Source of the DNA: a virus
Lineage: Duplodnaviria > Caudoviricetes
IMG/VR virus record: IMGVR_UViG_3300036944_001066
Location: 391-64,390 of that record
Length of the DNA stretch: 64,000 nucleotides
Reading direction: 5' to 3' (one strand)
Part shown: positions 2,093 to 57,992 of the stretch, in pieces
Position numbering within the stretch: position 1 is the stretch's first letter
How the letters are laid out: every line of letters starts with the position of its first letter
The notes under the pieces: generated by a model
What the model saw: only the letters and a program-made list of their open reading frames with translations
What the model was told of the DNA's origin: nothing
Databases searched by the model: none
Program-made: the position numbers and the translations under genes

Positions 2093-2102
2093 GATCAATC
2101 CC

Positions 2103-32991: not shown

Positions 32992-33016
32992 GACGGCGGG
33001 GCTCCTTGGTGAACCC

Positions 33017-33113
33017 GCACGTCCTGCGCAGCAATGTTTTTCATTACCACGCACCGTGTATTGCAACAATCCCGCAAGAAAGGTAATAAGGAAAGAGTAG
33101 GCGCAGGACGTGC
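33017..33113. promoter_or_regulatory. Divergent late promoters, each followed by the GCGCAGGACGTGC hairpin
   Basis: Plus strand: TTGCAA-17-TAATAA then motif 33101-33113. Minus strand: TTGTTG-17-TAATGA then motif 33029-33017. Confidence 0.75.
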
Positions 33114-33138
33114 TAATTTTCCATCAGGAGTTAGCACC

Positions 33139-34236
33139 ATGCCCACAATTGTACCTTTCGGCGATCCGAAGGCACAGAAGAAGTGGTCCGGCCAGTTGAT
33201 GGTCGCCACCATCCAGCAGTCCTACTGGGATCGCCGCTTCATCGGCGAATCCGATGAGAACTGCATCCAGAAGCTCACCGACCTCGAAAGCGCCGCCGGC
33301 GACAAGATCACTTACGATCTGTCCGTCCAGTTGCGCAACAAGCCGACCTACGGCGACAACCGCATGGACGGTTCGGAAGAGGCGCTGAAGTTTTTCACCG
33401 ACGAAGTGAACATCGACCAGATGCGTAAGCCGGTTTCGGCTGGCGGCAAGATGTCGCAGAAGCGCACCGCGCACAATCTGCGCATGATCGGCAAGAAGCG
33501 CCTCGCCGATTACTGGTCTGCCTTCATGGACCAGATGCTGTTCATCTACCTGTCGGGTGCGCGCGGCATCAACCAGAACTTCATCGAAGACACGGCATGG
33601 ACCGGCCACGCGGCCAACCCCATCCAGGCGCCGTCGAGCGACCACATCCTTTACGGTGGCGATGCCACCAGCAAGGCGACGATCGACAGCTCGGACAAGA
33701 TGTCCCGCAACCTGGTTGAACGTGCCGCCGTCGCCGCGACCATGATGGCCGCCACCGACCCCCGCAACGCTCGCCTCCTGCCGCTGAACATCAACGGCGA
33801 GAAGCATTACGTCTGCATTATGTCGACCTTCCAGGAACATGACCTGCGCACGTCCGATACCGCCGGCTGGCTGGAAATCCAGAAAGCGGCGGCGGCGGCC
33901 GAAGGCAAGTCCAATCCGATCTTCAAGGGCGGGCTGGGCATGATCAACAACGTAGTGCTCCACAGCCATGAAGACGCGATCCGCTTCAGCGACTACGGCG
34001 CAAGCTCCAACGCTCCGGCGGCCCGCGCGCTGTTCCTCGGCCGTCAGGCTGGCGTCATCGCATTCGGCGCCGTTGGCGGTTTCCGCTTCCAGTGGACCGA
34101 AGAAACCAAGGACCATGGCAACGAGCACGTCATTGCCGGCGGTCTGATGGTCGGCGCCAAGAAGGCCCGGTTCAACAACCGTGACTTCGGCGTCATGGCC
34201 CTCGACACCTACGCCAAGGATCCGAACGCGGCTTAA
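33139..34236 (+). CDS. Major capsid protein (N4-gp56/DUF4043 family)
   Basis: GDPKAQKKWS, IQKLTDLES.AGD.I.YDL, NPIFKGGLG, RALFLGRQAG. Confidence 0.92.
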   Translation: MPTIVPFGDPKAQKKWSGQLMVATIQQSYWDRRFIGESDENCIQKLTDLESAAGDKITYDLSVQLRNKPTYGDNRMDGSEEALKFFTDEVNIDQMRKPVSAGGKMSQKRTAHNLRMIGKKRLADYWSAFMDQMLFIYLSGARGINQNFIEDTAWTGHAANPIQAPSSDHILYGGDATSKATIDSSDKMSRNLVERAAVAATMMAATDPRNARLLPLNINGEKHYVCIMSTFQEHDLRTSDTAGWLEIQKAAAAAEGKSNPIFKGGLGMINNVVLHSHEDAIRFSDYGASSNAPAARALFLGRQAGVIAFGAVGGFRFQWTEETKDHGNEHVIAGGLMVGAKKARFNNRDFGVMALDTYAKDPNAA

Positions 34237-34275
34237 TCGCCGCGCTCGCCCTCGATCCAATCGGAGAACCTGGCA

Positions 34276-34737
34276 ATGACCATCTTTCAGAGCAAATACG
34301 CAATCGGGCAGCTGGCCACGCCCTATCCTTCGTCGGCTGGCGCCGTCACCGGCAAGCGCTACACCTATGCTGTCGCGGCCGCTCCCGGCGTCGGCGACAT
34401 CATCGAGCTTGCCCCCATCCCGCCCGAATGCCGCATCCTCGACCTGATCCTGACGGCGACGGACATGGATACCAACGACTCCCCCGCCATCGTCTTCGAT
34501 GTCGGCGTCATGAGCGGCGAATGGCAGGATGAATCCCAGTCCCGCACCTGCGGCGCTGAATTCTACTCGGCTTCCACGCTCGCCCAGGCTGGCGGCATGG
34601 CCCGCCCTACTCTGCGCGGTGCGTTCGAAGTGGCGCCCTCCGGCGTCTATCGTTCGATCGGCATCAAGATCACCACCGCCGCGGCAACGTTCGCGGCCGG
34701 CACGTTCGGTCTGACGGTTCTCTTCGCCACCGACTGA
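34276..34737 (+). CDS. Capsid decoration/virion protein
   Basis: Follows MCP; GDIIEL..IP, DMDTN, FDVG. Confidence 0.7.
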   Translation: MTIFQSKYAIGQLATPYPSSAGAVTGKRYTYAVAAAPGVGDIIELAPIPPECRILDLILTATDMDTNDSPAIVFDVGVMSGEWQDESQSRTCGAEFYSASTLAQAGGMARPTLRGAFEVAPSGVYRSIGIKITTAAATFAAGTFGLTVLFATD

Positions 34738-34766
34738 CGCGCCCCCGCAAGCAGTGATGTTTCAAC

Positions 34767-34795
34767 AAGGGGGCGTTTTCATGCGCCCCTTTTTC
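34767..34795 (+). terminator. Rho-independent terminator
   Basis: AGGGGCG...CGCCCCT followed by a T-run. Confidence 0.75.
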
Positions 34796-34811
34796 CTATG
34801 AGAGGTTCAAC

Positions 34812-35899: not shown

Positions 35900-35902
35900 C
35901 CA

Positions 35903-37517: not shown

Positions 37518-37518
37518 T

Positions 37519-39515: not shown

Positions 39516-39964
39516 AGTCCGTCATTTACCAGCCGGTAGACACTATGATCGAATGGGCAGTGAAGCGATGCGGCGGCTTCCCTTTCCGGGATGATGCAAC
39601 CGCGATCGGAACAACGGACGCCGGCCAGTTGGCCGGCGTTGTCGTGTTTGACAATTTCTCACCCGGTGGGTGTTACATCAGCGTGGCGTCCGATGGGTCG
39701 CGGCGCTGGCTGAATCGTGAATTTTTGATCCGTGCAAGCGCCTACCCATTCATCCAGTTGAACCAACGCCGCATCACTGGCCTGATTTCCGCGCATAACA
39801 GCGACAGCATCGCGTTCTGCAAATCCTGCGGGTTCCAATTTGAAGGCACGATGCGGCAGGGCGGCGTCTTTGGCGAAGATCTCCTGCTTTTCGGCTTGCT
39901 CAAAGAGGAATGCCGATGGCTTCCGAATAGGATGGCTGGAAAGCATAACCCGGCTGGGCTATAG
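39512..39964 (+). CDS. GNAT acetyltransferase
   Basis: YPFIQL..RRITGLI...N......GFQFEGTMR. Confidence 0.85.
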   Translation: MKSVIYQPVDTMIEWAVKRCGGFPFRDDATAIGTTDAGQLAGVVVFDNFSPGGCYISVASDGSRRWLNREFLIRASAYPFIQLNQRRITGLISAHNSDSIAFCKSCGFQFEGTMRQGGVFGEDLLLFGLLKEECRWLPNRMAGKHNPAGL

Positions 39965-39974
39965 TGCCATCGTC

Positions 39975-39987
39975 GCGCAGGACGTGC
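39975..39987 (+). promoter_or_regulatory. Late-leader GGA hairpin GCGC-AGGAC-GTGC
   Basis: TATAGT at 39960-39965; 27 nt before ATG 40015. Confidence 0.75.
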
Positions 39988-40014
39988 GGCCTCTCCTTTT
40001 CATGAGGCCACACA

Positions 40015-41271
40015 ATGGGCAAATTCAGTTCCTCTGCACCCGCAGCAGATCCCGCGATCGGCGAAGCCGCTCTTAAAGAGGCGCAGACTGGCGAGGCGTG
40101 GCTTGCCTTTGCGAAAGATTCCTTTGCTGTTTCGCAGGAGCGTCAGAAAGAACTAGACGCCCTCACGACAAAAGTGACGGAGCAACAGCTTGGCCTCGCG
40201 ACCGATCAGGCAACATGGTCAAAAGAGGATCGCGCGCGCTACAACAGCGTCTATAAGCCGATTGAGGATCAATACATCGCCGAGGCAACCAATTATGCTT
40301 CGGACGAAAAGCAGGCAGAGGCGGCGGCTGGCGCCCGCGCAGACGTGCAAACTGCCGCGGCCAATGCACGATCAGCCACCGAACGCCAGGCGGCATCGAT
40401 GGGCATTGATCCCACGTCCGGCCGGTTTGCCGGCGTGCAGGCCACCACCGACATGAACGCCACACTGGCCGAGGCTGGCGCGGCGAATGGCGCGCGTGAG
40501 GCAGTGCGTGACAAAGGGTTGGCGCTGAAGGCCGACGTGGCGAACATGGGCCGTGGTTATGCGTCCAGCGCGGGCACAGCTGCCGGAGGCAGCGTCGGCG
40601 CCAGCGCAACAGCACTTTCTGGCGCCCAGTCCACCAATAGTCAGTCGATGGCGGCAAACAACATCATGGGTGCCGGCTTCCAAGGGGCAATGCAAGGCTA
40701 TTCCGGGCAGGCGGCGACCTTGAACCAGCAGTTCGGCATCCAGTCCAACAACTGGCAGGCACAGCAGAGCGCGAACGCCCAGGGCGCCGCCGGCATCGGA
40801 ACTTTTTTGGGTGGCCTGTTTGCCAGCCCGATCTTCAAGTCCGACGAAAACCTGAAAGAGGACATTCAGGATATCCCCGAAGGCGAGGGCATCAACGCCA
40901 TGCGCAAGATGCCCGTGAGCGAGTGGAGCTACAAAGAGGGCGTCGAGGATGGCGGCCGGCATGTCGGCACAATGGCGCAGGATTTCCAGCGCGCCACCGG
41001 CAAGGGCGATGGCCAGTCGATCCCTGTCGTCGATGCCATCGGCATCACCATGAAGGCGGTGCAGGATCTCGACCAGAAGGTGGAAAAGCTGGCCGGCATG
41101 ATCGGCCTTGGTGACCACGAGAAGGCGGAAACCGCCGAGGAAGAGGCGGTTGAGGACGATGAAATGTCCGAAGAGGAGGATGCCGCCGCACCGCCGCCCA
41201 TGCCAGCCAAGCGCCGCGCCAAGCGCAACACGCCGATGATCGGCATCAACTTCGAAAAGGAAGCCGCGTAA
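40015..41271 (+). CDS. Putative ejection protein with C-terminal peptidase S74 (ICA) domain
   Basis: A/G/Q-rich body; SDENLKEDI...WSYK...HVGTMAQDF. Confidence 0.75.
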   Translation: MGKFSSSAPAADPAIGEAALKEAQTGEAWLAFAKDSFAVSQERQKELDALTTKVTEQQLGLATDQATWSKEDRARYNSVYKPIEDQYIAEATNYASDEKQAEAAAGARADVQTAAANARSATERQAASMGIDPTSGRFAGVQATTDMNATLAEAGAANGAREAVRDKGLALKADVANMGRGYASSAGTAAGGSVGASATALSGAQSTNSQSMAANNIMGAGFQGAMQGYSGQAATLNQQFGIQSNNWQAQQSANAQGAAGIGTFLGGLFASPIFKSDENLKEDIQDIPEGEGINAMRKMPVSEWSYKEGVEDGGRHVGTMAQDFQRATGKGDGQSIPVVDAIGITMKAVQDLDQKVEKLAGMIGLGDHEKAETAEEEAVEDDEMSEEEDAAAPPPMPAKRRAKRNTPMIGINFEKEAA

Positions 41272-42512: not shown

Positions 42513-42515
42513 CGA

Positions 42516-42806: not shown

Positions 42807-42856
42807 TTTGTCCCCACAGACACGCCCGTCGTCATGTCGGGCGTGTCGTGAGCCTA

Positions 42857-45800: not shown

Positions 45801-48800
45801 ACTGCCCCTTCAAGGCGTTTTGCAGCCTCATTGATCTTCGCGTCCATGCCGGGCACGCTGGCGAAATCATATGACTGGTTGGTGAAATAAGCAATGATGC
45901 CTGCTCGCTGTGCGACTTCTTGGATAGCGTAGCCGTGCGCCTCATCTGCCACGGACGCCACAGTGTTGCCGTTGTTGACCTGGCGCTGCAGAAATTCGGT
46001 CATAAACTGGCTGATTTTCGCCAAAGCACTTGTCATGTCTGCAAGTCTGTAGATCTGCGTGCCGGTATCATCCGAGAACTTGGCTCGCCATGCCTTCATC
46101 CTGTCGGTTGGCTCGTAACGGGTGTTGCGGCCACCTGCTCCAATAGCCCACGTGGCATGGAGACCTGGCATCACAGAGAATGCAATGTCGGCGCCACTCA
46201 GCGGGCTATTCCGCGGATGGTTGTGGAATATCACGATCTGCCGATCCGGGTTACTCATGGCCGAGGCGAGCTTGTTGCTCATCCCTGTCATGCTTGGCCT
46301 TCCGGCGGTGCCATACTCGACCACGGCGCCATCATCATCGATCGCCACCAGATGCTCATTCCCGGATTTAAGGCCCGGCTCCGAGACGACACGGAACGCC
46401 CACTGCATCAGGCTTTCTTCGGCATTTCGCGGCGGTACCGGCAATGAGCGCAAATCCTGCGTGGACTTCACCACCGGATCCGGGCGCTTATCGGCCTTGG
46501 CTGGCAGAACGTCGGCATCCGCCGGCGCAGCGACTGGCGCGGTGCCGGGCTTCTTTGGCTTCAGGGCATCGAGCAACGCGCGGTGCTTGGTCGCCGTCTC
46601 TTCCAGTTCGGCTGCGTTCGGCCACGGGCCGATCTGCTTTGCGATCAACGGGATCTGCTCTTGCACATCCGCTGCCCGCGCCTCGTCGCTGGCCGGCAAC
46701 TTTGTCAGCCTGCGCACCTGATTGGTGATCGACATGGCAAGGCCGGTCGGGTCTTGCTGGCCGACGTCCTCGATCGTCAGATGGTAGGAGCGCGCGCCTT
46801 TGATTTCGACGTCGAACTTTGCCTCGTACATGTGATCCATGCGGATCGTGAAATCGCCGTACTTGCCGACGGTTTCCGCGCCGCCCATGCCATCGACAAT
46901 GCCCTTGCGCATCCGGGCCAGCAGTGCGGCACCGAACTCTTTCGGTTTCTCAAAGGTCTCGCCATCGACGATGGCTTTGAACGGCTGGTCGGCCAGCTTT
47001 TCGGCGTTGGCCGCATCGGTGCGCTCACCCGGCAGGCGGGCGTTGATGGCCTCGATCTCCTCACGTGCCTGGCGGATCTTGTCGCGGATCCGGTGCTGGT
47101 TGCGGTTATGCTCAGAGGCTTGGCCTTCCAGCGTCCGCAGCTTGCGCCGTGTTTCCATCTCTTCCAGGATCAGCGGGTTACCGGATGCCGCGGCCTTCAT
47201 TTCGGCAGCATTGGCCGCTTCGCCGGCAATGTCCTCGATCTGGCGCGTTTTTACGTCGCCCTTGCGCACCTGCCCGATGAAACGGGCTTTTGCCTCGATG
47301 CCCTGCCACTGACGCGCATCGAGCGTGTTCTTCGTGGCATAGCGAAGGATTTCGACCTCGAAGCCGTTTGGATCTTCGTCGTAAAGCTCATTGCCCTGCC
47401 GGATGATGCGCCCGTCGCGCTGCTCAAGGTCAGATGGCCGCCACGGCGCATCGAGATGGTGCAGCGCCACAAGGCGGTTCTGCACGTTGGTGCCAGCGCC
47501 CATCTTGGCGGTGCTGCCGAACAGGAAGCGGGTCCGGCCCGAGCGAACCTTGCCGAAAAGTTCTTCCTTCTGGATCTCCGTGTTGGCGTCGTGGATAAAC
47601 GCGATCTCATCGGCCGGCACGCCGCGGTCAATCAGCTTTTGCCGCAGATCGTCATAGACCGAGAATTTCGACGTAAGAGCAAGGAACTCGTCGGGGCTCA
47701 TGGCGTCGAGCTTTTCCTGCGCCGCCTCGTCGCCCTCCTCCGCCTTGCGCATCAGGTCACGCAGTTCGCTTTCCTGCTTCGCCTTGGCTTTCTTGGGCGT
47801 GGACAGGTCGATGAACACCAGCTGCGCGCCGCGCTTGTCGCTCCACTTGTCGTAGATGCGCTTCATCTCGTCGGCCGCACGGCTGACTTTGCTATCCGGA
47901 TTGTCGGCATAGGCGGGATCGATCAGGCGCATGTCGAGCGCCGCCTTGCGGGCGTCCGACATCACTTTCAGCATGTTGTCGGCGCCCTTCTCTGCCTTCT
48001 TCGGCAGATGCTCAGCGCGATAGACCAACGATCCTTCCGGGAACTGCATCTCGCCGTTGGCATCCATTCGGCCCTCGCCGATGAATGCCGCCTGGTCCTG
48101 CGAACGCTCGACGGTGATGTTGTTGGGCTTGCCGCCCATGACCTTCGGCAATGGCAACGTCTTGCCCTGCGCGGCAAGCTGCGCCTTGATGTCGTCGTTC
48201 GAAATGACGTCGGCAAAGCCGAGATACATCTTCATCAGTTCGGGGATGTTCACGAACTTGGCGAAGCGCGTGTTGAGCTTGTACTGGCCGCTCGGGCTCA
48301 GTTCCCAGTCGGTGACAGCCTCACCGAACACACGTGCCCATGCGTCGAAGTGCGACAGGCCAAGGTTCCCGAGGCGCTTTTTGTCGAGATAGCGCTGCAC
48401 TGTGTACATTTCTGCCATCGTGTTCGACAGCGGAGTGCCGGTGGCCACGACGATGTTGCCGCCGGTTCGATCGAGAACGTTCTGGATCTTGATGAACATG
48501 TCGGTGGCTTTTTTGCTGCCAGTTGGGTTCCCGAGGCCGGCGACACGCTGCATGCCGGTGACAAACGGCAGGTTCTTGAACTCGTGGAACTCGTCGACAT
48601 AGAGCGCATCGACGCCGAGATCATCGAAATACAGCCCGTCATCCTTGCGGCCGGCGTCGAGGAGCCCCTTGATCTTGCTTTCAAGGTTCTGCCGCTGCTT
48701 CGCCAGCTGCGCCACGTTGCGCGACTTCTCGCCCGTTTCCCTGCGCATGTCTGTAATGGACTGCTCAAGGTCGCCGATCTGCTGCTGGATGAACGCGGCT

Positions 48801-51800
48801 TCGGTCTCAGGCGTGACGCCAATCAGGCCGAATTGCGAGTGAGCGACGATCACAACATCCCAGTCACCGGTCGCCACGCGGGCGAACAGGCGCTTGCGGT
48901 TCTGCTTCTCGAAGTCGCGTTTGGTCGGGGCCAGAACCTTTGCGCCCGGGTAGAGCTTCTGGAAGTCGGCGGCCCACTGTCCGACAAGATGGTTCGGCAC
49001 AGTGAGGACAGGCTTCTTTGCCTGCCCGGTACGGCGCTTCTCCATGATGGACGCGATCAGGGCGAATGTCTTGCCTGCACCGACGGTATGGTCCGCCAGC
49101 GCGACAGATGACTGAAGCGTGCGCCAGACAAACGATTTCTGGTGCGGGCGCAGCGTTACGATGTCGTCGCCGACCTTGCCCGGCAACGACAGGTGCGCGC
49201 CGTCATAGACGCGGATGACGTCGGTGTTGAAAGTATCGTTATAGAGCCGAGCCAGTTCGACGCGGCGTGCATCGTCCTGCCAAAGCCAGCGGTTCCACTC
49301 TTCCTTGACGCGCGAGACCTTCTCGTTGGCGGCCTCCGTTGCCGCCTGGTCGATCACGTCTTTGCCTTCGGCATCCTTCGTGTAGACCTGCGCCGACTTG
49401 CCGTTGATCGCAGCGTTGACGATCTGGCTCACCGATGCCCGTCCGGTAGCCCACATGGCATCAGATGCCGGCGTCGAGCGGGGCACGTCCAGCACCCAGA
49501 TGCCGTTGCCCCTGGAGTAAACCGCGCGTGCGCCTTTGCTCCCGGTGATGTGCTCGATGAAGTCGCCGACGTGCTTCGGCGGCACCCAGGGCGAACCCGC
49601 CTTCACATCGATGTCGATTGCCTCGATATCTTCCGGCTGCACATCCCGCAGGGCAGCAACGTTGCGACGGAATGTCGGGTCAGAGACGGCGGCACGCTCG
49701 GCCTCGGCCAGCTTTTGCTTAACGTTTCCGGACAGGTAGGCGTCGGCCGTTTCATAAGTGCCGGCCGGCGTCTGATAGAGAAGCGAACCCAGCTCATCGA
49801 CGATGGCGTCGGCAGGCTTGCCGTACAGCCGCGACATTTCATCAAGGTCAACACGGCCACGGTCATTTAGCACCTGCGCCAGCGCATCTTTCGCCGATGC
49901 GGCCGAGGTCGGGCGCTGATACGGTTGCTGGGTGCGCTTGGTGAAGATTGGAGCCTTGTCGGCCTTCGGCGGGCGGGCCTTCTCGCCCGTCTTCTTGGCG
50001 ACTTCGGCGGAAATGCCCTTGTCGTAATTGTTTTCCAGCGCCGAAATCTGCGGCCACGTCGGATCGTCGCGGAACAGGCGCTTGTTGGCGTCGTGGTTGA
50101 TCGGCCCGTTCTTGCCAACGAAGGCGTCATATGCCTTGTTCAGCCGCTCGCGCAGGTTCTCGATCTGCTTATCGGTCGCTGTGTCGCTGATCTGCGCACG
50201 ACGGAGGCGCGCGAACCCATCACGGACGCGCACCATTCCCTCGACACGTTCTTTGGCCTTGTCGCTGGCGAACGCCACCGGCTTTGACTGGGGCGTGCCC
50301 AGGCTATCGGCGATGCGCTCATGGACCGTGCCATCCGACGACAGGAACATCGAGCCAACGGATGCAGCCTCGACGCCATCGACGACGGTTTCGGTCGGGC
50401 GCATTTCCACGCCCGGCTCCGGCATCAAATCCTTGGGCAACGTCGCGATTGCAGCGCGCAGTTCCGCTGGCAGATCCTGCCCCTCGCGCGCGACAAGCGC
50501 GGGCTCATCCGGGCCGTACATCGTGCCATAGGCGCCGAAATCGCCCAGCATCATGCCGGGGTTGGCAATGAAGTAGCGGTTGAGCGGAACCGTCTTGCCG
50601 TCTTTGCCGCGGTAGTCGGCCACATCCACCCACGCGCGATCGCCCGGGCCGTCTTCTGCCGTGCGCTTGCGCAGGATGACGATATCCGTGGTCACTTCGG
50701 TGCCGGCGTTCTTCAGAAACGCATTGTTAGGCAACCGGATTGCGCCGACGAGGTCCGCCTGATTGGCAATCATCGTGCGCGCAGCGGCATTGTTGCCGTC
50801 GAGGAAGCGGTTTGTCACCACCATTGCCAGCACGCCGCCGGGGCGCAGCGCCTCAACAGCCTTGGCAAAGAAGAAATTGTGGATCGAAAGCTTGTTGAGG
50901 TGGCGACGGTTCTTGTCGTACAGCCGCTCGGAGCCGAAAGGCGGGTTGCCAATGACCAGGTCGAAATAGTCGTTCGGCACCACAAGCGTCTCGAATCCCA
51001 TCGGCGCCTGAATATTGGTCGCGGGGTAAAGGTTCTTGGCGATGCCGCCCGTGATGTGGTCAAGCTCGACGCCGGTCACATGCGATCCGGATTTCGCGCC
51101 AGCCGGCATCATGCCGATGAAGTTGCCGGCGCCGACCGACGGTTCAAGCACCTGCCCGCCCTTGAAACCAAGCTGCTGCGCGACGTTCCAGACGGCATCG
51201 ACGATTTCGGGCGAGGTGTAATGCGCGTTGCGTGTCGAGGATTCGGCCGCACGGTATTCTTCCGGCGTCAGCAATGCCTTCAACTCGGCGGCCTGCTTCT
51301 CCCAGCCCTTGTTCGCTGATCCGTCATCACGGAAGAACGCGGCACGGAGGCCGCCCCAGCCTACCCACTTCGCAAGCACCGCCTGCTCTTCGCGGGTGGC
51401 CGGCCGGTTCTCATCGGCAAGCGTGCGCAAAACCTTGATGGCCGCGACGTTGCCAGCGAACTTGGCCTTCGATCCGCCTTGGCCGATCTGGTCGCCATCC
51501 GTGATGGCATAGTCGGCCGGCAGGTTCTGCGCCGGCGTGGCTGCGCTCTCGACGCCCTTGAGGGCATCAAGCGACGACTGAGGGGCTACTCGGCGTCCAT
51601 CGACCGTTGGCCGGCCCGCATTGCGTCCATCATCGCCGCGCTGATCGACGTCGGGCTCTGCGGCTGCGTTCCTTCCGGTGGCGGGAACAGATACTCCTCC
51701 CGCGTCATCTGCCACGCCTCGTCCGGACTGAACCCGCTCTGCTCCAGCGCGTCCGTCTCCCGAAACGTCATCTCGGCCGCCTGCTGCAGGGCGCTCTCCA

Positions 51801-54800
51801 ACTGCCCGGCGTCCTTCAGCGCCTGGTACCGCGTCGGCTGGAATTCCTTCCAGTGCTGGCGCGCCTGGCTGATCCAGTTCTGCAGGTTCATCTGCGGTCT
51901 CCTTACCAATCGCGTTGACATCGGCGCTATCCACCTCGGCCGCGCTCGACATGCCGTCAAAGCCAGTAGCGCGAGGATCATATTTCACACCCATATACCA
52001 TGATTTCAGGTATGGGCGCGCTACCTCGCCGAGGTCACCGATCATCGCGGAGGCGTAGGCGGCAAACGTGCGTGCGCCCTTCTCGATGTGGTAGCCGGCA
52101 AGCGTGATACCAGCCTGCATGATCTCTGGATCGATACCGCTATTAAGCTGATTGAGTTTGGAGCGCAGCAACGCACGGGCCTTATCGGCCGCGCTTTCCG
52201 TAAAGATCTTGTTCTCGCTGACGGCCGGCGCGGCCTTCACCGCCGCCTGCTTCTCCGGGACCAGGTTTGTCTTTTCCCATGCGGACAGTTCGCGGTCCGT
52301 GGGGATGGACGAATGGGTGCGCTCGCGATCAAGCGAACCGTCCTTCTTGACCTCGGCAACTGTCACGGTCCATTCGGTCCCGTTGCGGTTGAAGCTGATC
52401 ACGCGATCTTTGCCGCCGCCATAAGCATCGACGTCTCGGCCCGGCTGAAAATAATTCTCGTAGCGGTCCACGCGCTGCGCTTGCGTCAACGGTTTGGGAC
52501 GTGGTGCGGCTGACGGCTTCGCAACAGATGCCGGTGCCGGGGCAGTTTTCTCCACCGACGGCTTCGCTGCGGCAACCGGCCGAGCCGTCTCCGCCTCGTA
52601 GATCTGCATCGCCGATTGATAAACATCATCCGCCTGCGAAGCACGGACCTTGAGACCGGCGCCATCGCGCGCACCGATGTAACCCATCAGGTACGGCTCG
52701 ATCGGGTCCGTCGTGCCACCGTGCGGTGCGGGCTTCGTTGGCGGCTTGCCTTCCTTCTGATCGAGCCAGCCGGCAATCATCTGGTATGCGACCGAGCTTT
52801 CGCGGTGCGGATCCATCGGCTTGATTTCGGCGCGGAACTTGCGGAATGCCGGCGTGGCCCAAACGGCTTTCACCTCATCGTCCGTCACCTGACGCATGCG
52901 CGCCTTGTCCTGATCCGGCACGCCGGCGCTGCGCTCGCTGAATCGCTTTGCCGTGTTGCCGGTCTCAAGCCACTGCTTGAATTCGCCCAGCGTCGTTTCC
53001 GTCACCGGACCCAGCTTCCAGCCGTCGCTGTAGTTGTCGAGATAGCCCTGTTCTGCCTCGGCCTGTGCGTTGAAGCCGAGCATCACCTTGTGCTCATCCC
53101 ACTTGCCATCGGGGCCGACTTGGTCGACCACGAAAACCGGCGCGGCATCAGTCAGCGTCTCTGTGCCTGGCTTCACGAACACGTCGATGTGGTCTTTGTC
53201 GCGGCCCACGGTGCCCTTGATGTAGCCATAATGGCTTTGCATCCGCACCGACCACTGCTTGCCGCCCTTGTCCACGCCCTTGCGATCGGAGCCGGCCGGG
53301 TTCTCGATCGAGATGTCGAGCCCGCCAATGCGCGCATGGCCGAGCTTGTAGTTGCCGGCTTCCTTCTGCGCCTGCGTCGGCTCCGGCCGCTCGTTCTCCG
53401 GCGACGTTGCGGCTTCTTTGGCTGCTTGGTCGACGGTAAGTGCAACGTCGCCAGCCTCGCGCAGGTAGTTGATCCCTTCCCGAACCGCAGCATTGCGGAC
53501 AGCCTGCAAGGTTGCTTGCGCAGCGGGTGAAATTGGCCCGCCAGCGTCTGCGCCAATCTGGTCCCCGTAGCTGGAAAGCTTGACGTAACCGTGATTTTCA
53601 ACTGGAATAAGGTCCGCCTCAAATAGGCGGCCAAGGAATTCAGCGTGATCACCGGACGGATTGCTGGTGGGCTTCAAGACGTAAAGCTTTCCATCTGGCT
53701 CGATGATTGCGGCTTCTTCGCGCCGAGGGTGCTCAACAATCCTGCGAACATATTCGATAGGCGACATGCGTTCGCCCATTTCTTTGTAGATGGCCGTCAA
53801 TTTTTGTTTGGTATTCTGCGCCGGCTTTGCAGCTTCCGCTGTCTGAATGTCCGTGATGGAGTTGCCGGCATGCATCCGCGCAAACGCGGTATAGCCGGGG
53901 ATGTCGTTGACCTCATTCCAAAGTTCAAGCGGATAGCTGCCGATCTTGGCAACATCGGTAAACGGGATATCCCGCGAGCCGGGAGCGATGCCCCAGCGGT
54001 TTTCCTTTGCGTTCCATGTGACCAACGATGCGGTGTTGCCGCGAATGACGACGCGCGAGCCCTTCTCGCCAACGCCGCTCAGACCGGCAGAACTCAGAAC
54101 GCTGGCGTTTGTGTCGAGGAAGATTGTGCGCGCGCTGCGAGGCTTTAGCCCCTTGTCGCCTTCATGGCCCGGATCGGCACGTTCGGCCTTTACGCGCGTC
54201 GTGGTGCCGTCCGCATGCAAGGTGTAGCGGCTACCTTTCGCAGTCGTGAAAGTCTGCTCGCCGCCGCTCGCCGAATCCTCCTGCACCGCGCCGCCATTAC
54301 GTACCGCGTCGATCTTGGCGCGGATAGCGGGCGTGAACGTGCCCCACATCGCGTTTTCGCTGCGCTTGACGCCTGCCTCGTCGAGGATGCGCTTGCGCTC
54401 CGGTGCCGTCAGTTCGGCATCCCACCACATTTCGTTGCCGACCGTGTTCGTCGTATCTGCGTCGGCCTTGGACCGCTCAAGCTGCCACTGCTTCAGCCGG
54501 CGCTCGTTGACCGGTGCAATGCGCTGCGGCAGATCAGATCCAGCCGTCTTTGCCGCACGCTGCGCGCGGTACCGATAATCATCGGCCATGCTGCCGAGCG
54601 CCTGCGGCGTCACCTTGAAGGCATCGGCCAGCGCTTTGTGTTCCGGCACGTCAACCGAGCCAAGATCCAACTGCGACGAACCGCTTGCCTTGGAGATCGC
54701 CCGATTAAGGCCGAGATCGAAAAGCCTTGCGTGGTTTTCGTCCGGCATGACAAGCGTCTTGCCCATGACTTTGCGCATGGTCGGCCCGGCAACAGCGGCC

Positions 54801-57514
54801 TTCTCTTCGGTGCGGTCCACCGGCGGCACGCGCCGCGCATCTTCTGCCGCCACCTGCTTTGGCGTCTGCTTGTTGACCTTCAGGCTTTCGAGCGGAACCT
54901 GGTACGACTTGCCGTCATCGGCGCGCACGACGGCGTCCGTGCCGTCCCACGTTTCAACGGTACCGGCAAACCGGCCGGCCTTCTCGTCGTTGACGATGAT
55001 GCGCTGGCCCGGCGGTGGTGCGCTGGGGAAGCGCATGTTGGCTTCCATGTCCTGCGATGCGGGCGCCAGTCCCTCATTGGTCACCGTTGCAGAAACCGGT
55101 GCTGCCGGCTCCAACGCCGGATCGGTCGAAAACTCGGGCAGGCTATCGCCAATCGGGATTGGCCCGGTTTCGGGCGGGTTATCGGCCGCGATCTTCTCCG
55201 GCGAATCCGCAATCTTCGACAGGTTGGCGAGCGGGATCTGGTAGACCTCGCCAGTGCCGCTATCGACGATGACAGCTTCATCGCCTTCGTAACTGTCCAC
55301 GCGACCCATGAAAGGCTCAATGCCATCCGCATCGACGCGCACCGTGGCGCCGACTTCCGGTGCGCCATCTGGCATCGCTGCGGCGGCCGGCATTGCCACC
55401 GGCACCGCTGCTGCGGCGCGTGCCGCCTGCTGCTCTGCCGCATGCTGGGTGGCTCTGCCAATCGGCCCGCTTGCCGTTGTCTGCACCGTGGGTGCGGCTG
55501 GTGCGCCTGCATCTGCCGGCATCGCCTCGCCTTCGGCTCTCGGCCTGGCTGCACCACCGACGCCGCCGAGCGTGCCGCCCATGGCTCCACCACCGGCAAG
55601 GCCAGACGCAACCGCCTCGCCGACGCCTTCCGTAATCTGCTGATCCGGGTTCACCCGCTGCACGCCGGCATTCTCGGCCATCGTCTGCAGCGCGCTCTGC
55701 GGCGCCTCTTCAAGCACGCCCTCGCCGATCATGCCGCGCACCGTACCTGCCAGCACACGCTTTGCCACGTTGCCGCCGACACCCTCGGCGAGGATCTTTG
55801 CCAGCGCACGATCGCCCATGCCGCCGAACATGCCGGTGGCAACGCCTGCCATGAGGAACGACTGCGTTGCTGCGTCCTCGGTCACTGCCTTGATTGCCTC
55901 TTCCTGGCTCATGCCGCCATCGACGAGTGCCTTGACGGCATCGCTTTCGGCCAGTTGGTCCGGCGCAATCTGCCCGATCCGGTCGCGCACGTTCTTCGCA
56001 GCGTCCGCACCGCCCAGGATGCCTTCCGAGATCGCGCCGGCAACCGTGGCCGTGCGTGCGGCGACTGCTGCGGCCTGCACCTGCGATCCGGTTGCCGCCA
56101 TGGTGCGCAGATACGCGCCACGCGCCAGAATGCCGCCGGGGAGCATCGTCACCAGTGTGCTTGGCGCACTTTCGCCCACCACGCGCAGATAGCTGCGAGG
56201 ATCGCGCCACGCCGGGCCAAACCGCTTGTTGTCGGCGTCCCACCAGTTTTTGGCGTCCGCATCCTGCTGTGCCTGCGTCACCGACGCATTGGCCTGCGTC
56301 TGGCTCTGCGACAGGCGCTGATCCAGCGTCTTGCCCATCGCCCAACGGTCAATATCGTCGGATGCCTGCAGGAACGCCTCCCCGCCTGGCAGTTTGCGGA
56401 ACACGGTGTCAGCGAGCGAAGACAGGGACTGCCCAAGGCCGATGGTGCCGGACTTGAGGATGCGTCCGGTATCGCCGAACACGCCACCGGAACGGTTCTC
56501 CTCTTCCCACTTCTGCTGCCAGTCGCCCAACTGCGATTCCGCGATGGTCTCGTAACGGCCCGGATCTTTCGCCTCGAGCGCTTCGACGCGCTGCGCGGCC
56601 TCCGCATTGTGCTGCTCATTGAGCGCGTTGATGCGATTGGTTTCCGACTGCGTTGCCGCTGCCTCTGCGGCGGCCTCGATCTGCGCGCGCCGCTGCTTGG
56701 CCATGTCGTCGAACGGATTTCCGCCGGCCATCAGCCCCATGGGGTCCGAAGCCTTGAAATTCTCGTCGACCACGATCGAGTTACCAGACGCGCTGGCCGA
56801 GACCGGGCCAAGTGGCGCACGTTCAACGCGGCCCAAGGCGCGATTGAACTTTTCGCCATAGGCGCCAATGCTGGTTCCCAAAGAATCCTTGCGCTCTGTC
56901 TTGCCAACGCCCCCAGCTCCGCCAAACCATGCCTGCGCAGCGCCCTCCGGTCCAAAGCGTGCCACGTATTTTCCGAACTGATGGTCGAAAACGGCATCTT
57001 GAATATCGGGATTTGCAAGAAACTCTTCTGCGGTTACCTCTCGCCCAATTGCCGCCTTGGACCACGGGCCAACATTGGCTTCCATGACCTGGTACCGGCC
57101 GAGAGCATACCCCATAGAACGATGTTTCGGCCCGATTGCAGAGTAGTCTCCGCTCCCTTTGCTTTCGATCGATGCGATAGCCTCACGATAGGCTGGCATT
57201 TCAGGGAACTGCGGCGTGAACACCTCTTTGCGCGCTGGCTTGGGCGCATATGTGCCATCGCGCAGCACGGCTGCGAACGGATCAGCGCCCTCATCGCCGA
57301 GACCGGGCATTTCTGCAATCCGGCTGGTTTTTTCCGCGCGCGGTGCCTTGGTCACATACGGGTCGCGATAGCTGCTTTCGGACTTGGCTGCAGGTGCATC
57401 CGCCTTCTCCGCCGGCGTTGCCTCAACCGGCTTCTCGGCCGCTGCGCTCGGCTTCCCGCCATAGATGTTGAGCGGGTCATTCCAGTCGCCGTCGAGGCCG
57501 AGGATAACAGGCAT
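42857..57514 (-). CDS. Giant DarB-like polyvalent virion protein (~4885 aa)
   Basis: Lysozyme-like (IASIES, GRYQVM), InPase-like (HYGYIKGT..RDKDHIDVFV), N6-MTase (LEPSVGAG, NPPF), SNF2 (VGAGKT, DEFH, PWRPSDLEQRDGR), HNHP domain, YFPLGRFG; RBS GGAG. Confidence 0.93.
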   Translation of the reverse strand: MPVILGLDGDWNDPLNIYGGKPSAAAEKPVEATPAEKADAPAAKSESSYRDPYVTKAPRAEKTSRIAEMPGLGDEGADPFAAVLRDGTYAPKPARKEVFTPQFPEMPAYREAIASIESKGSGDYSAIGPKHRSMGYALGRYQVMEANVGPWSKAAIGREVTAEEFLANPDIQDAVFDHQFGKYVARFGPEGAAQAWFGGAGGVGKTERKDSLGTSIGAYGEKFNRALGRVERAPLGPVSASASGNSIVVDENFKASDPMGLMAGGNPFDDMAKQRRAQIEAAAEAAATQSETNRINALNEQHNAEAAQRVEALEAKDPGRYETIAESQLGDWQQKWEEENRSGGVFGDTGRILKSGTIGLGQSLSSLADTVFRKLPGGEAFLQASDDIDRWAMGKTLDQRLSQSQTQANASVTQAQQDADAKNWWDADNKRFGPAWRDPRSYLRVVGESAPSTLVTMLPGGILARGAYLRTMAATGSQVQAAAVAARTATVAGAISEGILGGADAAKNVRDRIGQIAPDQLAESDAVKALVDGGMSQEEAIKAVTEDAATQSFLMAGVATGMFGGMGDRALAKILAEGVGGNVAKRVLAGTVRGMIGEGVLEEAPQSALQTMAENAGVQRVNPDQQITEGVGEAVASGLAGGGAMGGTLGGVGGAARPRAEGEAMPADAGAPAAPTVQTTASGPIGRATQHAAEQQAARAAAAVPVAMPAAAAMPDGAPEVGATVRVDADGIEPFMGRVDSYEGDEAVIVDSGTGEVYQIPLANLSKIADSPEKIAADNPPETGPIPIGDSLPEFSTDPALEPAAPVSATVTNEGLAPASQDMEANMRFPSAPPPGQRIIVNDEKAGRFAGTVETWDGTDAVVRADDGKSYQVPLESLKVNKQTPKQVAAEDARRVPPVDRTEEKAAVAGPTMRKVMGKTLVMPDENHARLFDLGLNRAISKASGSSQLDLGSVDVPEHKALADAFKVTPQALGSMADDYRYRAQRAAKTAGSDLPQRIAPVNERRLKQWQLERSKADADTTNTVGNEMWWDAELTAPERKRILDEAGVKRSENAMWGTFTPAIRAKIDAVRNGGAVQEDSASGGEQTFTTAKGSRYTLHADGTTTRVKAERADPGHEGDKGLKPRSARTIFLDTNASVLSSAGLSGVGEKGSRVVIRGNTASLVTWNAKENRWGIAPGSRDIPFTDVAKIGSYPLELWNEVNDIPGYTAFARMHAGNSITDIQTAEAAKPAQNTKQKLTAIYKEMGERMSPIEYVRRIVEHPRREEAAIIEPDGKLYVLKPTSNPSGDHAEFLGRLFEADLIPVENHGYVKLSSYGDQIGADAGGPISPAAQATLQAVRNAAVREGINYLREAGDVALTVDQAAKEAATSPENERPEPTQAQKEAGNYKLGHARIGGLDISIENPAGSDRKGVDKGGKQWSVRMQSHYGYIKGTVGRDKDHIDVFVKPGTETLTDAAPVFVVDQVGPDGKWDEHKVMLGFNAQAEAEQGYLDNYSDGWKLGPVTETTLGEFKQWLETGNTAKRFSERSAGVPDQDKARMRQVTDDEVKAVWATPAFRKFRAEIKPMDPHRESSVAYQMIAGWLDQKEGKPPTKPAPHGGTTDPIEPYLMGYIGARDGAGLKVRASQADDVYQSAMQIYEAETARPVAAAKPSVEKTAPAPASVAKPSAAPRPKPLTQAQRVDRYENYFQPGRDVDAYGGGKDRVISFNRNGTEWTVTVAEVKKDGSLDRERTHSSIPTDRELSAWEKTNLVPEKQAAVKAAPAVSENKIFTESAADKARALLRSKLNQLNSGIDPEIMQAGITLAGYHIEKGARTFAAYASAMIGDLGEVARPYLKSWYMGVKYDPRATGFDGMSSAAEVDSADVNAIGKETADEPAELDQPGAPALEGIPADAVPGAEGRRAVGERPAAGGRDDVSGDGRAGAERVQSGRGVADDAGGVSVPATGRNAAAEPDVDQRGDDGRNAGRPTVDGRRVAPQSSLDALKGVESAATPAQNLPADYAITDGDQIGQGGSKAKFAGNVAAIKVLRTLADENRPATREEQAVLAKWVGWGGLRAAFFRDDGSANKGWEKQAAELKALLTPEEYRAAESSTRNAHYTSPEIVDAVWNVAQQLGFKGGQVLEPSVGAGNFIGMMPAGAKSGSHVTGVELDHITGGIAKNLYPATNIQAPMGFETLVVPNDYFDLVIGNPPFGSERLYDKNRRHLNKLSIHNFFFAKAVEALRPGGVLAMVVTNRFLDGNNAAARTMIANQADLVGAIRLPNNAFLKNAGTEVTTDIVILRKRTAEDGPGDRAWVDVADYRGKDGKTVPLNRYFIANPGMMLGDFGAYGTMYGPDEPALVAREGQDLPAELRAAIATLPKDLMPEPGVEMRPTETVVDGVEAASVGSMFLSSDGTVHERIADSLGTPQSKPVAFASDKAKERVEGMVRVRDGFARLRRAQISDTATDKQIENLRERLNKAYDAFVGKNGPINHDANKRLFRDDPTWPQISALENNYDKGISAEVAKKTGEKARPPKADKAPIFTKRTQQPYQRPTSAASAKDALAQVLNDRGRVDLDEMSRLYGKPADAIVDELGSLLYQTPAGTYETADAYLSGNVKQKLAEAERAAVSDPTFRRNVAALRDVQPEDIEAIDIDVKAGSPWVPPKHVGDFIEHITGSKGARAVYSRGNGIWVLDVPRSTPASDAMWATGRASVSQIVNAAINGKSAQVYTKDAEGKDVIDQAATEAANEKVSRVKEEWNRWLWQDDARRVELARLYNDTFNTDVIRVYDGAHLSLPGKVGDDIVTLRPHQKSFVWRTLQSSVALADHTVGAGKTFALIASIMEKRRTGQAKKPVLTVPNHLVGQWAADFQKLYPGAKVLAPTKRDFEKQNRKRLFARVATGDWDVVIVAHSQFGLIGVTPETEAAFIQQQIGDLEQSITDMRRETGEKSRNVAQLAKQRQNLESKIKGLLDAGRKDDGLYFDDLGVDALYVDEFHEFKNLPFVTGMQRVAGLGNPTGSKKATDMFIKIQNVLDRTGGNIVVATGTPLSNTMAEMYTVQRYLDKKRLGNLGLSHFDAWARVFGEAVTDWELSPSGQYKLNTRFAKFVNIPELMKMYLGFADVISNDDIKAQLAAQGKTLPLPKVMGGKPNNITVERSQDQAAFIGEGRMDANGEMQFPEGSLVYRAEHLPKKAEKGADNMLKVMSDARKAALDMRLIDPAYADNPDSKVSRAADEMKRIYDKWSDKRGAQLVFIDLSTPKKAKAKQESELRDLMRKAEEGDEAAQEKLDAMSPDEFLALTSKFSVYDDLRQKLIDRGVPADEIAFIHDANTEIQKEELFGKVRSGRTRFLFGSTAKMGAGTNVQNRLVALHHLDAPWRPSDLEQRDGRIIRQGNELYDEDPNGFEVEILRYATKNTLDARQWQGIEAKARFIGQVRKGDVKTRQIEDIAGEAANAAEMKAAASGNPLILEEMETRRKLRTLEGQASEHNRNQHRIRDKIRQAREEIEAINARLPGERTDAANAEKLADQPFKAIVDGETFEKPKEFGAALLARMRKGIVDGMGGAETVGKYGDFTIRMDHMYEAKFDVEIKGARSYHLTIEDVGQQDPTGLAMSITNQVRRLTKLPASDEARAADVQEQIPLIAKQIGPWPNAAELEETATKHRALLDALKPKKPGTAPVAAPADADVLPAKADKRPDPVVKSTQDLRSLPVPPRNAEESLMQWAFRVVSEPGLKSGNEHLVAIDDDGAVVEYGTAGRPSMTGMSNKLASAMSNPDRQIVIFHNHPRNSPLSGADIAFSVMPGLHATWAIGAGGRNTRYEPTDRMKAWRAKFSDDTGTQIYRLADMTSALAKISQFMTEFLQRQVNNGNTVASVADEAHGYAIQEVAQRAGIIAYFTNQSYDFASVPGMDAKINEAAKRLEGAVFNDTTAKTADAGIYRSAKPVRHIAEMEGMAVAGRGDVGANPKSGGLAEAGARDYSPEKRRTVNRERITRELSGRLTDLTPAVLKTIPLNYFTELARPNMVAVGEYLRVKRLMDAFRGQKHADADEIAGQWLKFTRLGFASRDKAKAQALSDLMHDSTIFGVDPSSTEDEEKAKGHYAALRQRYLALPPAGRELYNKVRNAYSAQAAELDEILLDNVRKAQEIAREQAERRYKKSLEQIRDAGLAMDLRRKAEEDAKSAYQAETTKSSWAAKARMTKLRIAFESSRVPAPYFPLGRFGRYFVTVRDVDGSVLTFSKFEKAADRDRFASEVGREYPGGTVEKGVMEEGADLRNSMDPRMVAEIETILGGAGVDSEVMDMIWQRYLETMPDLSTRKRFIHRKGTAGFNRDALRVFSSHMFHAAHQMAKVKYGLELQELVQQARDQAREADDPTRGMTLSNELAKRHDWVMNPTGGKAAQVLTSAAFVWFLAASPASAALNMTQTVMMGMPILAGRFGGMKMAGQALMKASMDSVKGRGSITNANLSREEKDAIQAFYDSGLIDRTQSHELAGVGDTGVNYSPLRARVMGVISWAFHRAEVWNREVTALAAYRMARGSGQDHLAAIDTAHDLTWKTHFDYSNSSRPAIMQNDIAKVALVFRNYNVNMLYRMFRDIHQSLKGETPAARKEARYQLAGVVGMQALFAGVSGVAGFNLAMMVAGLIFGDEDDDPLGFEQAFRTDMVNILGPELGGVVLNGVPGHYLGIDLTTRIGMPDLWFRSPNRELQGKDEYQYWLSQSLGATVGLGENLYNGFNLVMDGEVARGIETAAPKVVRDLMKSYRYASEGLTSFDGTTVMTADQIGVHGIVAQALGFTPASVAETWDRNTALKNAETRIMRERQRLVTKWAMSVIEGEDAEIDKATKAIDKWNDVPLHQAVPIKPDTLKRSVKTRMKNSANRDEQGTLIRNELLGERLRGALSERIYD
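45586..45795 (-). CDS. Nested 69-aa gene in the +1 frame of the giant gene
   Basis: RBS AAGGGG; PPSPFDTLQKWKEWLSQVEAM amphipathic helix. Confidence 0.55.
   Translation of the reverse strand: MTQQQKLLMPGFIDPPSPFDTLQKWKEWLSQVEAMSARIPNRADLLKQARETIRLKSAERSIGNGLPVN
51586..51891 (-). CDS. Nested 101-aa gene (TnpV-like) in the +1 frame of the giant gene
   Basis: RBS AAGGAG 7 nt upstream; ARQHWKEFQPTRYQALKDAGQLESAL...EAWQMTREEYL. Confidence 0.65.
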   Translation of the reverse strand: MNLQNWISQARQHWKEFQPTRYQALKDAGQLESALQQAAEMTFRETDALEQSGFSPDEAWQMTREEYLFPPPEGTQPQSPTSISAAMMDAMRAGQRSMDAE

Positions 57515-57541
57515 GGGTGTGGCTCCGGTTGAATTGGAGCC

Positions 57542-57554
57542 GCACGTCCTGCGC
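57542..57554 (-). promoter_or_regulatory. Late-leader GGA hairpin GCGC-AGGAC-GTGC
   Basis: TATAAA at 57573-57568; 27 nt before ATG 57514. Confidence 0.75.
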
Positions 57555-57588
57555 GACAAGTGCATGATTTATAGATGGCGGCGGGGCA

Positions 57589-57624
57589 TAAGAAAAGCCC
57601 GCCGGGGCTATCCGACGGGCTTCT
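57589..57624 (-). terminator. Rho-independent terminator
   Basis: AGCCCGTCGG...CCGGCGGGCT followed by TTTCTT on the minus strand. Confidence 0.75.
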
Positions 57625-57641
57625 GCGCGATCTTATCTCGA

Positions 57642-57956
57642 TTAAGCCGCGGCGCGAACGCGGGCTTTGTCCCCGGGCTTGACGTAGACGTCGTGGCTGT
57701 GGCTGTCATTGACCATCAGCAGCAGAGACGGAGCCGCATCCAAGTCGCCGCTGCCAACGTCGAGGTACGCATCTGCCTGGATGGTAACGCGGAAAACGGG
57801 CCGCAATCCATCCTTGTCGGTTGCAGCCTTTGTGGTGCTGGTCCCAAGCGCCGGGGTCTCGGACCACTGCACCAGGCCGAACAACGGCTGCTTGGCGCCG
57901 AACGGTGCATCTGCCGGCGCGAAGCCGCATGCGATATGAACATCAGGTAGAGCCAT
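57642..57956 (-). CDS. Small beta-rich putative virion protein
   Basis: FRVT...DAY..VG...VYVKPGDK; own promoter, motif and terminator. Confidence 0.7.
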   Translation of the reverse strand: MALPDVHIACGFAPADAPFGAKQPLFGLVQWSETPALGTSTTKAATDKDGLRPVFRVTIQADAYLDVGSGDLDAAPSLLLMVNDSHSHDVYVKPGDKARVRAAA

Positions 57957-57979
57957 GGGCGTGCCTTTCGGTTGATTGA

Positions 57980-57992
57980 GCACGTCCTGTGC
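57980..57992 (-). promoter_or_regulatory. Late-leader GGA hairpin GCAC-AGGAC-GTGC (perfect stem)
   Basis: TGATAATAT upstream; 23 nt before ATG 57956. Confidence 0.75.

Follow-up and report, generated by a model that had tools for sequence, protein, structure and literature searches.

The 64,000-nucleotide stretch of DNA analyzed here (the window) is nearly the whole of a 64,390-base virus record of IMG/VR (IMGVR_UViG_3300036944_001066), which CheckV rates as complete, and it carries five exact copies of a 13-nucleotide (nt) box, GCRCAGGACGTGC, all of them sense-oriented and each located upstream of an ATG (exact-match search). The box can fold on itself into a short hairpin, HP1, or its 3' half can pair with bases just before the AUG to form a second hairpin, HP2. 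We are confident that these leaders hold a real translational element with two alternative helices, a two-state reading that is supported energetically and, for HP2, comparatively. The phage also encodes a protein of the CsrA family, and the explanation that we favor, tentatively and as rather less than an even bet when taken as a whole, is a leader switch activated by this phage protein. The CsrA-activator mechanism is a plausible proposal.

According to this proposal, each late transcription unit would start with the box, preceded by only a few nt of mRNA. The ground state would be HP2, in which the (N)GA(C)GUGC segment of the box and the bases that follow it pair with a segment just before or including the AUG, with the 5' untranslated region of about 40 nt closed and both the Shine-Dalgarno (SD) sequence and the start codon covered. 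In the alternative state HP1 (GCGC/GUGC, with loop A-N-G-A-(N)), the box would fold on itself and release the AUG-proximal arm. The phage CsrA-family protein, produced from the portal operon, would bind the HP1 loop, and such binding would shift the leaders from HP2 to HP1, raising translation of the capsid, tail-fiber-like, polyvalent and lysin genes by an activation of the ymdA type.

The boxes of the window all read GCRC-AGGAC-GUGC, so that GGA is displayed in the loop of a short hairpin in five of five leaders, as expected of a CsrA site. The first-pass annotation had counted six leaders; five were found:

33029..33017, minus strand: box of the lysin leader, GCGCAGGACGUGC, exact match, 25 nt from the ATG; HP1 GCGC/GUGC with loop AGGAC, HP1 alone -4.6 kcal/mol
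33101..33113, plus strand: box of the capsid leader, exact match, 25 nt from the ATG
39975..39987, plus strand: box of the gene 40015 leader, exact match, 27 nt from the ATG
57554..57542, minus strand: box of the giant-gene leader, exact match, 27 nt from the ATG
57992..57980, minus strand: box of the leader of a gene for 104 amino acids (aa), g57956, GCACAGGACGUGC, exact match, 23 nt from the ATG; the third pair of HP1 is A-U, not G.U

Looser patterns occurred in the window at chance level (an 11-mer with one mismatch, 7 matches against 2.9 expected; a 13-mer with three mismatches, 86 against 77), and consequently only the five exact copies were counted.

HP1 is a 4-base-pair (bp) hairpin of the box itself (GCRC/GUGC, loop AGGAC), worth -4.1 to -4.7 kcal/mol when folded alone. 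HP2 is the minimum-free-energy (MFE) fold of all five leaders; it starts with the GA(C)GUGC of the box, stops 0-3 nt short of the AUG and encloses the SD. The first-pass annotation had proposed that the 3' arm of the GGA hairpin can pair instead with the region of the ribosome-binding site (RBS), and every stem that it listed is present and belongs to the MFE fold. The proposal that the default fold covers the RBS holds equally in the computed folds, where HP2 is the ground state and lies over the SD and the AUG-proximal bases. The lysin ATG had been placed at 32992 and is actually at 32991..32989. The HP2 helices and fold energies are as follows, with z-scores taken against 200 dinucleotide shuffles of each leader:

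32992..33023, minus strand: HP2 of the lysin leader, GACG.GCGGGUUC ... GAG.CCCGCCGUC, ending at -1 of the AUG (32991..32989) in the MFE fold; MFE -18.0, HP1 enforced -13.8 kcal/mol, z -1.41
33110..33137, plus strand: HP2 of the capsid leader, GUGCUAAU..UCC....GGAGUUAGCAC, with the SD GGAG within the 3' arm and the AUG at 33139; MFE -12.3, HP1 enforced -8.0 kcal/mol, z -2.40
39984..40013, plus strand: HP2 of the gene 40015 leader, GUG.GGCCUC ... GAGGCC.CAC; MFE -19.6, HP1 enforced -16.2 kcal/mol, z -3.39
57517..57545, minus strand: HP2 of the giant-gene leader, GUG.GGCUCC ... GGAGCC.CAC; MFE -18.7, HP1 enforced -15.7 kcal/mol, z -3.16
57957..57987, minus strand: HP2 of the g57956 leader, GG.CGUGCU ... 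AGGCACG.CC; MFE -10.8, HP1 enforced -5.8 kcal/mol, z -1.46

Both helices use GUGC and therefore cannot coexist. Constrained folding thus upheld one half of the expectation of competing folds, since exclusive helices do exist, but not the half that would have made them similar in energy: enforcing HP1 costs 3.0-5.6 kcal/mol in the window (median 5.4 kcal/mol across the leaders of the family), and HP2 is favored by that amount. When HP1 is enforced, the cost of opening the segment from -13 to +3 drops from a median of 9.5 to 4.0 kcal/mol in the family (n=76), and in the five window leaders from 7.2 to 2.8, 9.3 to 6.0, 8.0 to 5.1, 11.4 to 5.9, and 7.0 to 1.4 kcal/mol.

The comparative evidence comes from 80 IMG/VR loci around capsid homologues (60-76% identity), 11 complete relatives, and the window. 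A strict pattern combined with an open reading frame (ORF) gave 92 candidates, 15 of which were dropped (inside ORFs, without leader context); two start codons were corrected and the GCAC variant of the window was added, giving 78 leaders, 77 of them with distinct arms. The consensus of the box in the family is GCGCA-N-GA-(0-2 nt)-GUGC, and at least 4 nt of its 3' half pair in the MFE fold with the last 14 nt before the AUG, or with the AUG itself, in 65 of the 77 leaders. The arms of HP2 co-vary: cognate arm duplexes average -14.9 kcal/mol and swapped ones -11.0, and 0 of 10000 permutations did as well as the cognate set. The earlier remark that sequences differ while pairing is kept is thus confirmed, in the window and in its relatives. 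The variable base N6 pairs in HP2 as U-A in 38 of the 77 leaders (with the A of AUG), G-C in 12, A-U in 2 and U.G in 2, and is unpaired in 23; spacer pairs are C-G (16) and U-A (4), and at positions +1 to +4 after the box G-C, C-G, A-U, U-A and G.U all occur. These counts derive from MFE folds of single sequences, which can list canonical pairs only. RNAalifold on a MAFFT alignment returned HP1 alone because the 3' arms of HP2 were out of register, another MAFFT alignment, of leaders trimmed by structure, had the same fault, and a covariance model built from nine leaders was too narrow and matched the reverse strand as well. Since alignments lose register and MFE folds list canonical pairs only, the significance of the co-variation rests on the permutation of swapped arms.

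The same pattern recurred in 25 of 28 loci of further lineages taken from bacterial genomes, for example as GGAUGUGCU/AGCACAUCC and GGAAGC/GCUUCC. In BcepIL02, the box and HP2 (GGAUGUGC/GCACAUCC) lie between the annotated CsrA-like gene and the major head gene. Across 40 leaders, 160 of 160 HP1 cells are paired; a compensatory C-G and an A-U each occur once, and other variants have A-U closing pairs (loci L065, L189), G.U (L070, L077) or a G-C third pair (L198). Box positions G7 and A8 are invariant although their HP2 partners could compensate, and GCGCA is invariant although unpaired in HP2, which suggests that something reads the box by its sequence.

Two variations on the leaders stand apart. 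In relatives in which N is U (e.g., L014, L039), AUGA variants put an AUG in the box, separated by a few nt from the predicted 5' end; the CAUG of the box pairs with the CAUG at the true start, and some leaders have a 4-codon mini-ORF after the AUG of the box. In the PEp14-like clade (L062, L047, L059, L069), the 3' half of the box pairs about 20 nt upstream of the AUG in a 13-bp hairpin that ends at the SD. This wiring leaves the start codon free and represents another use of the same box.

Of 72 distinct upstream segments, 24 contain a -10-like hexamer (at least five of six positions) no more than 28 nt before the box, at a distance that varies from 8 to 22 nt; in random controls the rate is 2.1%. 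All five window leaders have one, with a full match to the sigma-70 consensus in a promoter scan at gene 40015 only:

39960..39965, plus strand: TATAGT of the gene 40015 leader, 9 nt upstream of the box, a putative late promoter
33084-33089, plus strand: TAATAA of the capsid leader, read from the sequence
33046..33041, minus strand: TAATGA of the lysin leader, read from the sequence
57573..57568, minus strand: TATAAA of the giant-gene leader, read from the sequence
58009..58004, minus strand: GATAAT of the g57956 leader, read from the sequence

The hexamer stands at no fixed distance, pairing with the AUG region is maintained by compensation, and G.U pairs are frequent in HP2, many of them possible in sense RNA alone. 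All this argues for an RNA element right at the start of the late mRNAs, and we infer that these mRNAs begin just upstream of the box. The box could otherwise be read as DNA, as an operator, a roadblock or an initially transcribed promoter element for a late-gene factor, with the stems secondary. It does sit just downstream of -10-like boxes that lack an evident -35, it is a quasi-palindrome, and the relative Atu_ph08 encodes a GcrA-like sigma-70 cofactor, as a passage of its genome paper states (PMC6630229). We nevertheless regard a DNA element as very unlikely: the distance to the -10 is free to vary, whereas compensatory changes, along with G.U pairs possible in sense RNA only, preserve the pairing with the AUG region; the conserved G3/T11 breaks the symmetry of the DNA, yet forms a G.U pair in RNA; and the box holds no GANTC. 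Four further candidates were rejected, namely a sigma-54 or extracytoplasmic function (ECF) promoter, for which the spacing is unfit by eye; a GcrA/GANTC site, for lack of GANTC in the box; an intrinsic terminator, since a T-run follows the capsid copy only; and an RNase III site, for which the stems are too short.

The candidate reader is encoded at the end of the portal operon:

2103-4346, minus strand: portal gene of the P22 type (PF16510, E 1e-181)
1166-2116, minus strand: ORF of 316 aa, between the portal gene and the CsrA-family gene in the same operon
956..1159, minus strand: CsrA-family gene, 67 aa, last in the operon portal, 316-aa ORF, CsrA-like gene; PF02599 match below cut-off

The link to CsrA drawn in the first-pass annotation gains from the presence of this gene in the window, and the activation logic has a proven precedent in ymdA of Escherichia coli (PMC7492729). 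A profile of 29 phage homologues, the window protein included, matches RsmE (2jpp) over positions 1-54 with E 3.7e-12, and it matches CsrA (1y00) at 5e-8 and seven further CsrA chains. Because these profile matches to known structures run over the beta1-beta5 core, we judge the assignment of the window protein to the CsrA family to be sound. The gene was found in each of the 34 complete relatives (by Pfam in 29, 8 of these above the cut-off; with the window protein in 4; with the family profile in 1) and also in BcepIL02, Atu_ph08 and PBC5. A search of viral contigs with the single window protein returned no relative; the homologues were found by Pfam and profile searches of whole records. The gene lies directly upstream of the capsid leader in four relatives (G018, G024, G032, G034) and in BcepIL02. 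In the window it follows the portal gene and a gene of about 320 aa, as it does in BcepIL02, and the capsid module has moved away in the clade of the window. A prediction of the two-copy complex of the protein scored 0.24 against a mark of 0.42 and was used neither for nor against the proposal. In relative G002 (locus L133), a copy of the box, GCGCAAGAGUGC, stands at base 24135 (plus strand), 11 nt past the stop of the CsrA-like gene and with no start codon nearby; it could be an autoregulatory or decoy site.

The type of loop appears to follow the beta-5 strand of the protein. The strand ...VPI[KR]R is kept in six relatives, all six of which have AGGA loops, and among the other 27 GGA occurs in G017 only; the window itself (QVVRIQ) makes a second exception. 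As these cases are not phylogenetically independent, we treat the correspondence as a lead, not as a test. Single genomes often have just one loop type, while orthologous leaders of different genomes differ (window, five with G; G018, three with G; G023, five with U; Atu_ph08, four with U; PBC5, five with U). Canonical A-N-GGA-N loops are rare (L063, AUGGAC; and, by eye, L197, AUGGAU, and L200, AUAGGAC).

Several observations weigh against the proposed switch, and the first group concerns the folds. The expectation that HP1 frees the RBS was correct for the drop in opening cost, but in the lysin, gene 40015 and giant-gene leaders a 6-bp, GC-rich upper stem containing the SD survives HP1, with a residual opening cost of 5.1-6.0 kcal/mol, and the RBS is consequently freed only in part. 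Nor are the leaders unusually closed: opening -15 to +4 costs 9.8-13.4 kcal/mol in the five leaders, 54 other ORF starts of the window have a median of 7.8 and reach 18.5 at most, and 5 to 18 of those 54 are as closed or more so, which puts the five above the median without making them extreme. In 12 of 77 leaders, mostly of the PEp14-like clade, the 3' arm lies farther upstream and abuts the SD instead of the AUG. HP1 is nearly invariant and 17 of 500 shuffles reach its co-variation score. Its comparative support is therefore weak, and by the aligned leaders HP1 is compatible with the data and weakly proven.

The second group of adverse observations concerns the loop and the protein. The first-pass annotation had centered on GGA hairpins; in the 77 leaders, however, the first-G position is U in 45, G in 21 and A in 11, and this base co-varies with its partner in HP2, so that GGA is not what is conserved. 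Canonical CsrA needs the first G of GGA. The base even differs within single genomes, with both A and U in G001 and G002, and GCGCA and the stem sequence are conserved more strictly than a CsrA site would ordinarily require. Against PF02599, the window protein reaches 21.6-22.3 bits, where the curated cut-off is 27. L2, L4 and R44 are key RNA-binding residues of CsrA. The window protein keeps MLxL but has, by alignment, R43-I44 in the place of the H43-R44 of CsrA, and R44 is kept by alignment only in the ...VPI[KR]R clade and in a few others. Finally, the co-occurrence of gene and box discriminates little. Every member of the family carries both, and the comparison extends to only two outgroups without both: the CsrA-like gene and the capsid leader were absent alike from an Stx-type phage (PA28) and from Vibrio phage D80, with 30-31% capsid identity. 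An F116-like phage also lacks a capsid leader; it carries a canonical CsrA at another place in its genome.

The conservation of the box well beyond the need of a CsrA site, together with the variable GGA, would also suit a hairpin that acts without the CsrA-like protein, as a built-in attenuator, a 5' stabilizer, or a kinetic (co-transcriptional) or temperature switch; alternatively, GCGCA..GA might be read by another host or phage factor while the CsrA-like gene acts elsewhere, for example on host mRNAs. Passages of genome papers in fact call the gene a moron of unknown role (PMC9144972, PMC10269572). We consider such independence from the protein fairly unlikely, because the gene adjoins the capsid leader in several clades and is present throughout the complete relatives, and because the loop type follows the beta-5 strand. 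Pfam scans of 41 window proteins, the CsrA-like one included, found no other RNA-binding family, with about 20 further ORFs outside the scan. Moreover, four of five host genomes with such prophages had no Pfam match to CsrA, and in the fifth the prophage gene was the sole match; the hosts checked thus have no other Pfam-detectable CsrA and hence no Csr regulon. A passage of a 2020 survey likewise lists Burkholderia and Sinorhizobium meliloti as lacking a chromosomal csrA (PMC7366521). With both sides considered, we hold the case for the CsrA-like protein as the reader of the box to be evenly balanced.

If the protein does bind, we lean towards activation instead of repression. The reverse direction was the alternative raised at first pass, with cooperative binding to a second GGA in the RBS. 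In classical repression, a CsrA-like dimer would bridge the box hairpin and the GGA of the SD and block entry of the ribosome. The effect might be to restrict or postpone production of capsid, tail and lysin, or to keep leaky late transcripts silent in the lysogen. A second GGA is indeed found in three of the five window SDs (AAGGAG, CAGGAG, CCGGAG), but the SDs of gene 40015 (GAGG) and g57956 (AAAGG) lack it. The SD GGAG also lies in the HP2 loop of many relatives, within reach of a CsrA-type protein, and the bridging of two GGA sites is described as the common mode of CsrA repression (PMC7492729). HP2 already closes the leaders, however, and a repressor would add little. In addition, knock-down of the csrA homologue of phage PTXU04 lowered phage fitness according to a passage of a recent screen (PMC11879866), although the kinship of PTXU04 to this family is not established. 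On balance we regard repression as unlikely.

The closest parallel to the favored switch is ymdA, for which Renda et al. (2020; PMC7492729) describe translational activation mediated by CsrA. There, as here, the leader hairpin sequesters the SD and overlaps a CsrA-type site, and destabilization upon binding is proposed to let the ribosome in. In our predicted folds the hairpin that sequesters the SD and AUG does share bases with the candidate protein site. Unlike in ymdA, the candidate protein is phage-encoded and divergent, with binding and activation as our proposal; at least five phage mRNAs share a fixed 13-nt box at their predicted 5' ends; and the loop is A-N-G-A, not GGA, in most relatives.

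The canonical CsrA/RsmE site has the consensus A(N)GGA in a loop. The likeness to canonical systems such as RsmE-hcnA (2jpp) lies in a protein of 60-70 aa of the same family, a short hairpin with (A)GGA, and a second GGA in three of five window SDs. The differences are that U or A is tolerated in place of the first G, that the sequence of the stem is conserved, that the site competes with a second helix, and that the hosts checked lack a chromosomal Pfam-detectable CsrA. Phage Mu offers another comparison: its Com protein binds beside a translation-inhibitory stem-loop of mom and unfolds it, so that the SD and AUG of this late gene become accessible. The phage protein of the window would, by analogy, likewise open an inhibitory leader structure of late genes; Com, however, is a zinc-finger protein acting on one mRNA, whereas here a CsrA-family protein would act on a box common to late units.

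In the passages that describe them, the CsrA-like genes of Bcep22, BcepIL02, DC1, JC1, CSP3, GP4 and PEp14 are called morons or regulators of unknown role, with no target named (PMC7366521, PMC9144972, PMC10269572). The gene studied here belongs to the same phage family and has the same position after portal and scaffold-like genes. The Atu_ph08 paper (PMC6630229) contains no occurrence of CsrA and does not mention the divergent homologues of the Rhizobiales clade. The 2020 survey asked for loss-of-function tests of phage csrA homologues (PMC7366521), and in a 2025 screen knock-down of the homologue in the E. coli phage PTXU04 gave smaller plaques, its role being previously untested according to the authors (PMC11879866). 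Among the titles, abstract openings and passages covered, none described a leader box common to the late genes of these phages or a target of their CsrA.

Our results provide a concrete candidate target set for the phage CsrA homologues, in the form of a co-varying leader on capsid, tail, lysis and polyvalent mRNAs. Confirmation of the box would provide a portable, protein-responsive translational switch and place late-gene timing at the level of translation. Culturable pairs with both gene and box are PBC5 with Sinorhizobium meliloti (five boxes) and Atu_ph08 with Agrobacterium C58 (four boxes). A bolder extension, which we hold to be speculative and rather improbable, is that the CsrA homologues of Bcep22/PBC5-like phages are the master translational switch of their own late genes and not morons, in a viral mini-Csr regulon that acts through a box common to all late mRNAs, with a loop specificity that drifted from GGA to UGA/AGA along with the beta-5 strand; they would then be the first CsrA-family proteins with a reprogrammed motif, in hosts without Csr.

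The source phage belongs to the Bcep22/PBC5-like podophage group. Its major capsid protein (PF13252) shares 72.5% identity with the major head protein of Sinorhizobium phage PBC5 and 58-70% with the counterparts in Atu_ph08, POI1126, Itty13, PEp14, Ralstonia GP4-like phages and BcepIL02, and the related prophages reside mostly in genomes of Rhizobiales and Rhodobacterales. The genes behind the five leaders and the integrase are as follows:

26974-28248: tyrosine integrase
32185..32991, minus strand: lysin-like gene (Glyco_hydro_108, GH108), 268 aa (PF05838, E 7e-23)
33139..34236, plus strand: major capsid gene (Phage_capsid_3), 365 aa (PF13252, E 2e-65)
40015..41271, plus strand: gene 40015, 418 aa, with a Peptidase_S74 chaperone domain of the tail-fiber or spike type (PF13884, E 3e-11)
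42857..57514, minus strand: gene for a giant polyvalent DarB-like protein, 4885 aa from the ATG at 57514 (Pfam LPD39, InPase, Eco57I, N6_Mtase)
57642..57956, minus strand: g57956, 104 aa, with no match in the Pfam scan

The open frame of the giant gene begins at 57565 (first ATG), and its true start is at 57514 (MPVIL...), as indicated by the leader and by orthologues (MP[IVL]V[IL]GLG). A terminator-like hairpin with a T-run at 57596-57609 (minus strand) separates the 104-aa gene from the promoter-like box of the giant gene, so that g57956 and the giant gene look like separate transcription units. The RefSeq capsid coding sequence of Atu_ph08 (L205, 1459-2589) starts at a GTG that lies within the leader box and precedes the conserved ATG by 36 nt, and the capsid open frame of the window (33034-34236) likewise extends upstream through the box; both look like over-extensions of the start codon. 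A second muralytic gene (Phage_lysozyme and PG_binding_1), without a leader box, is found at 60759-61700 (minus strand) besides the GH108 protein at 32185-32991, and either product may be the true endolysin. Accessory genes of the window encode a C5 cytosine methylase (9172-11148, minus strand), a DUF5131 protein (19286-20284, plus strand), and a TerB-domain protein (16145-16684, plus strand).

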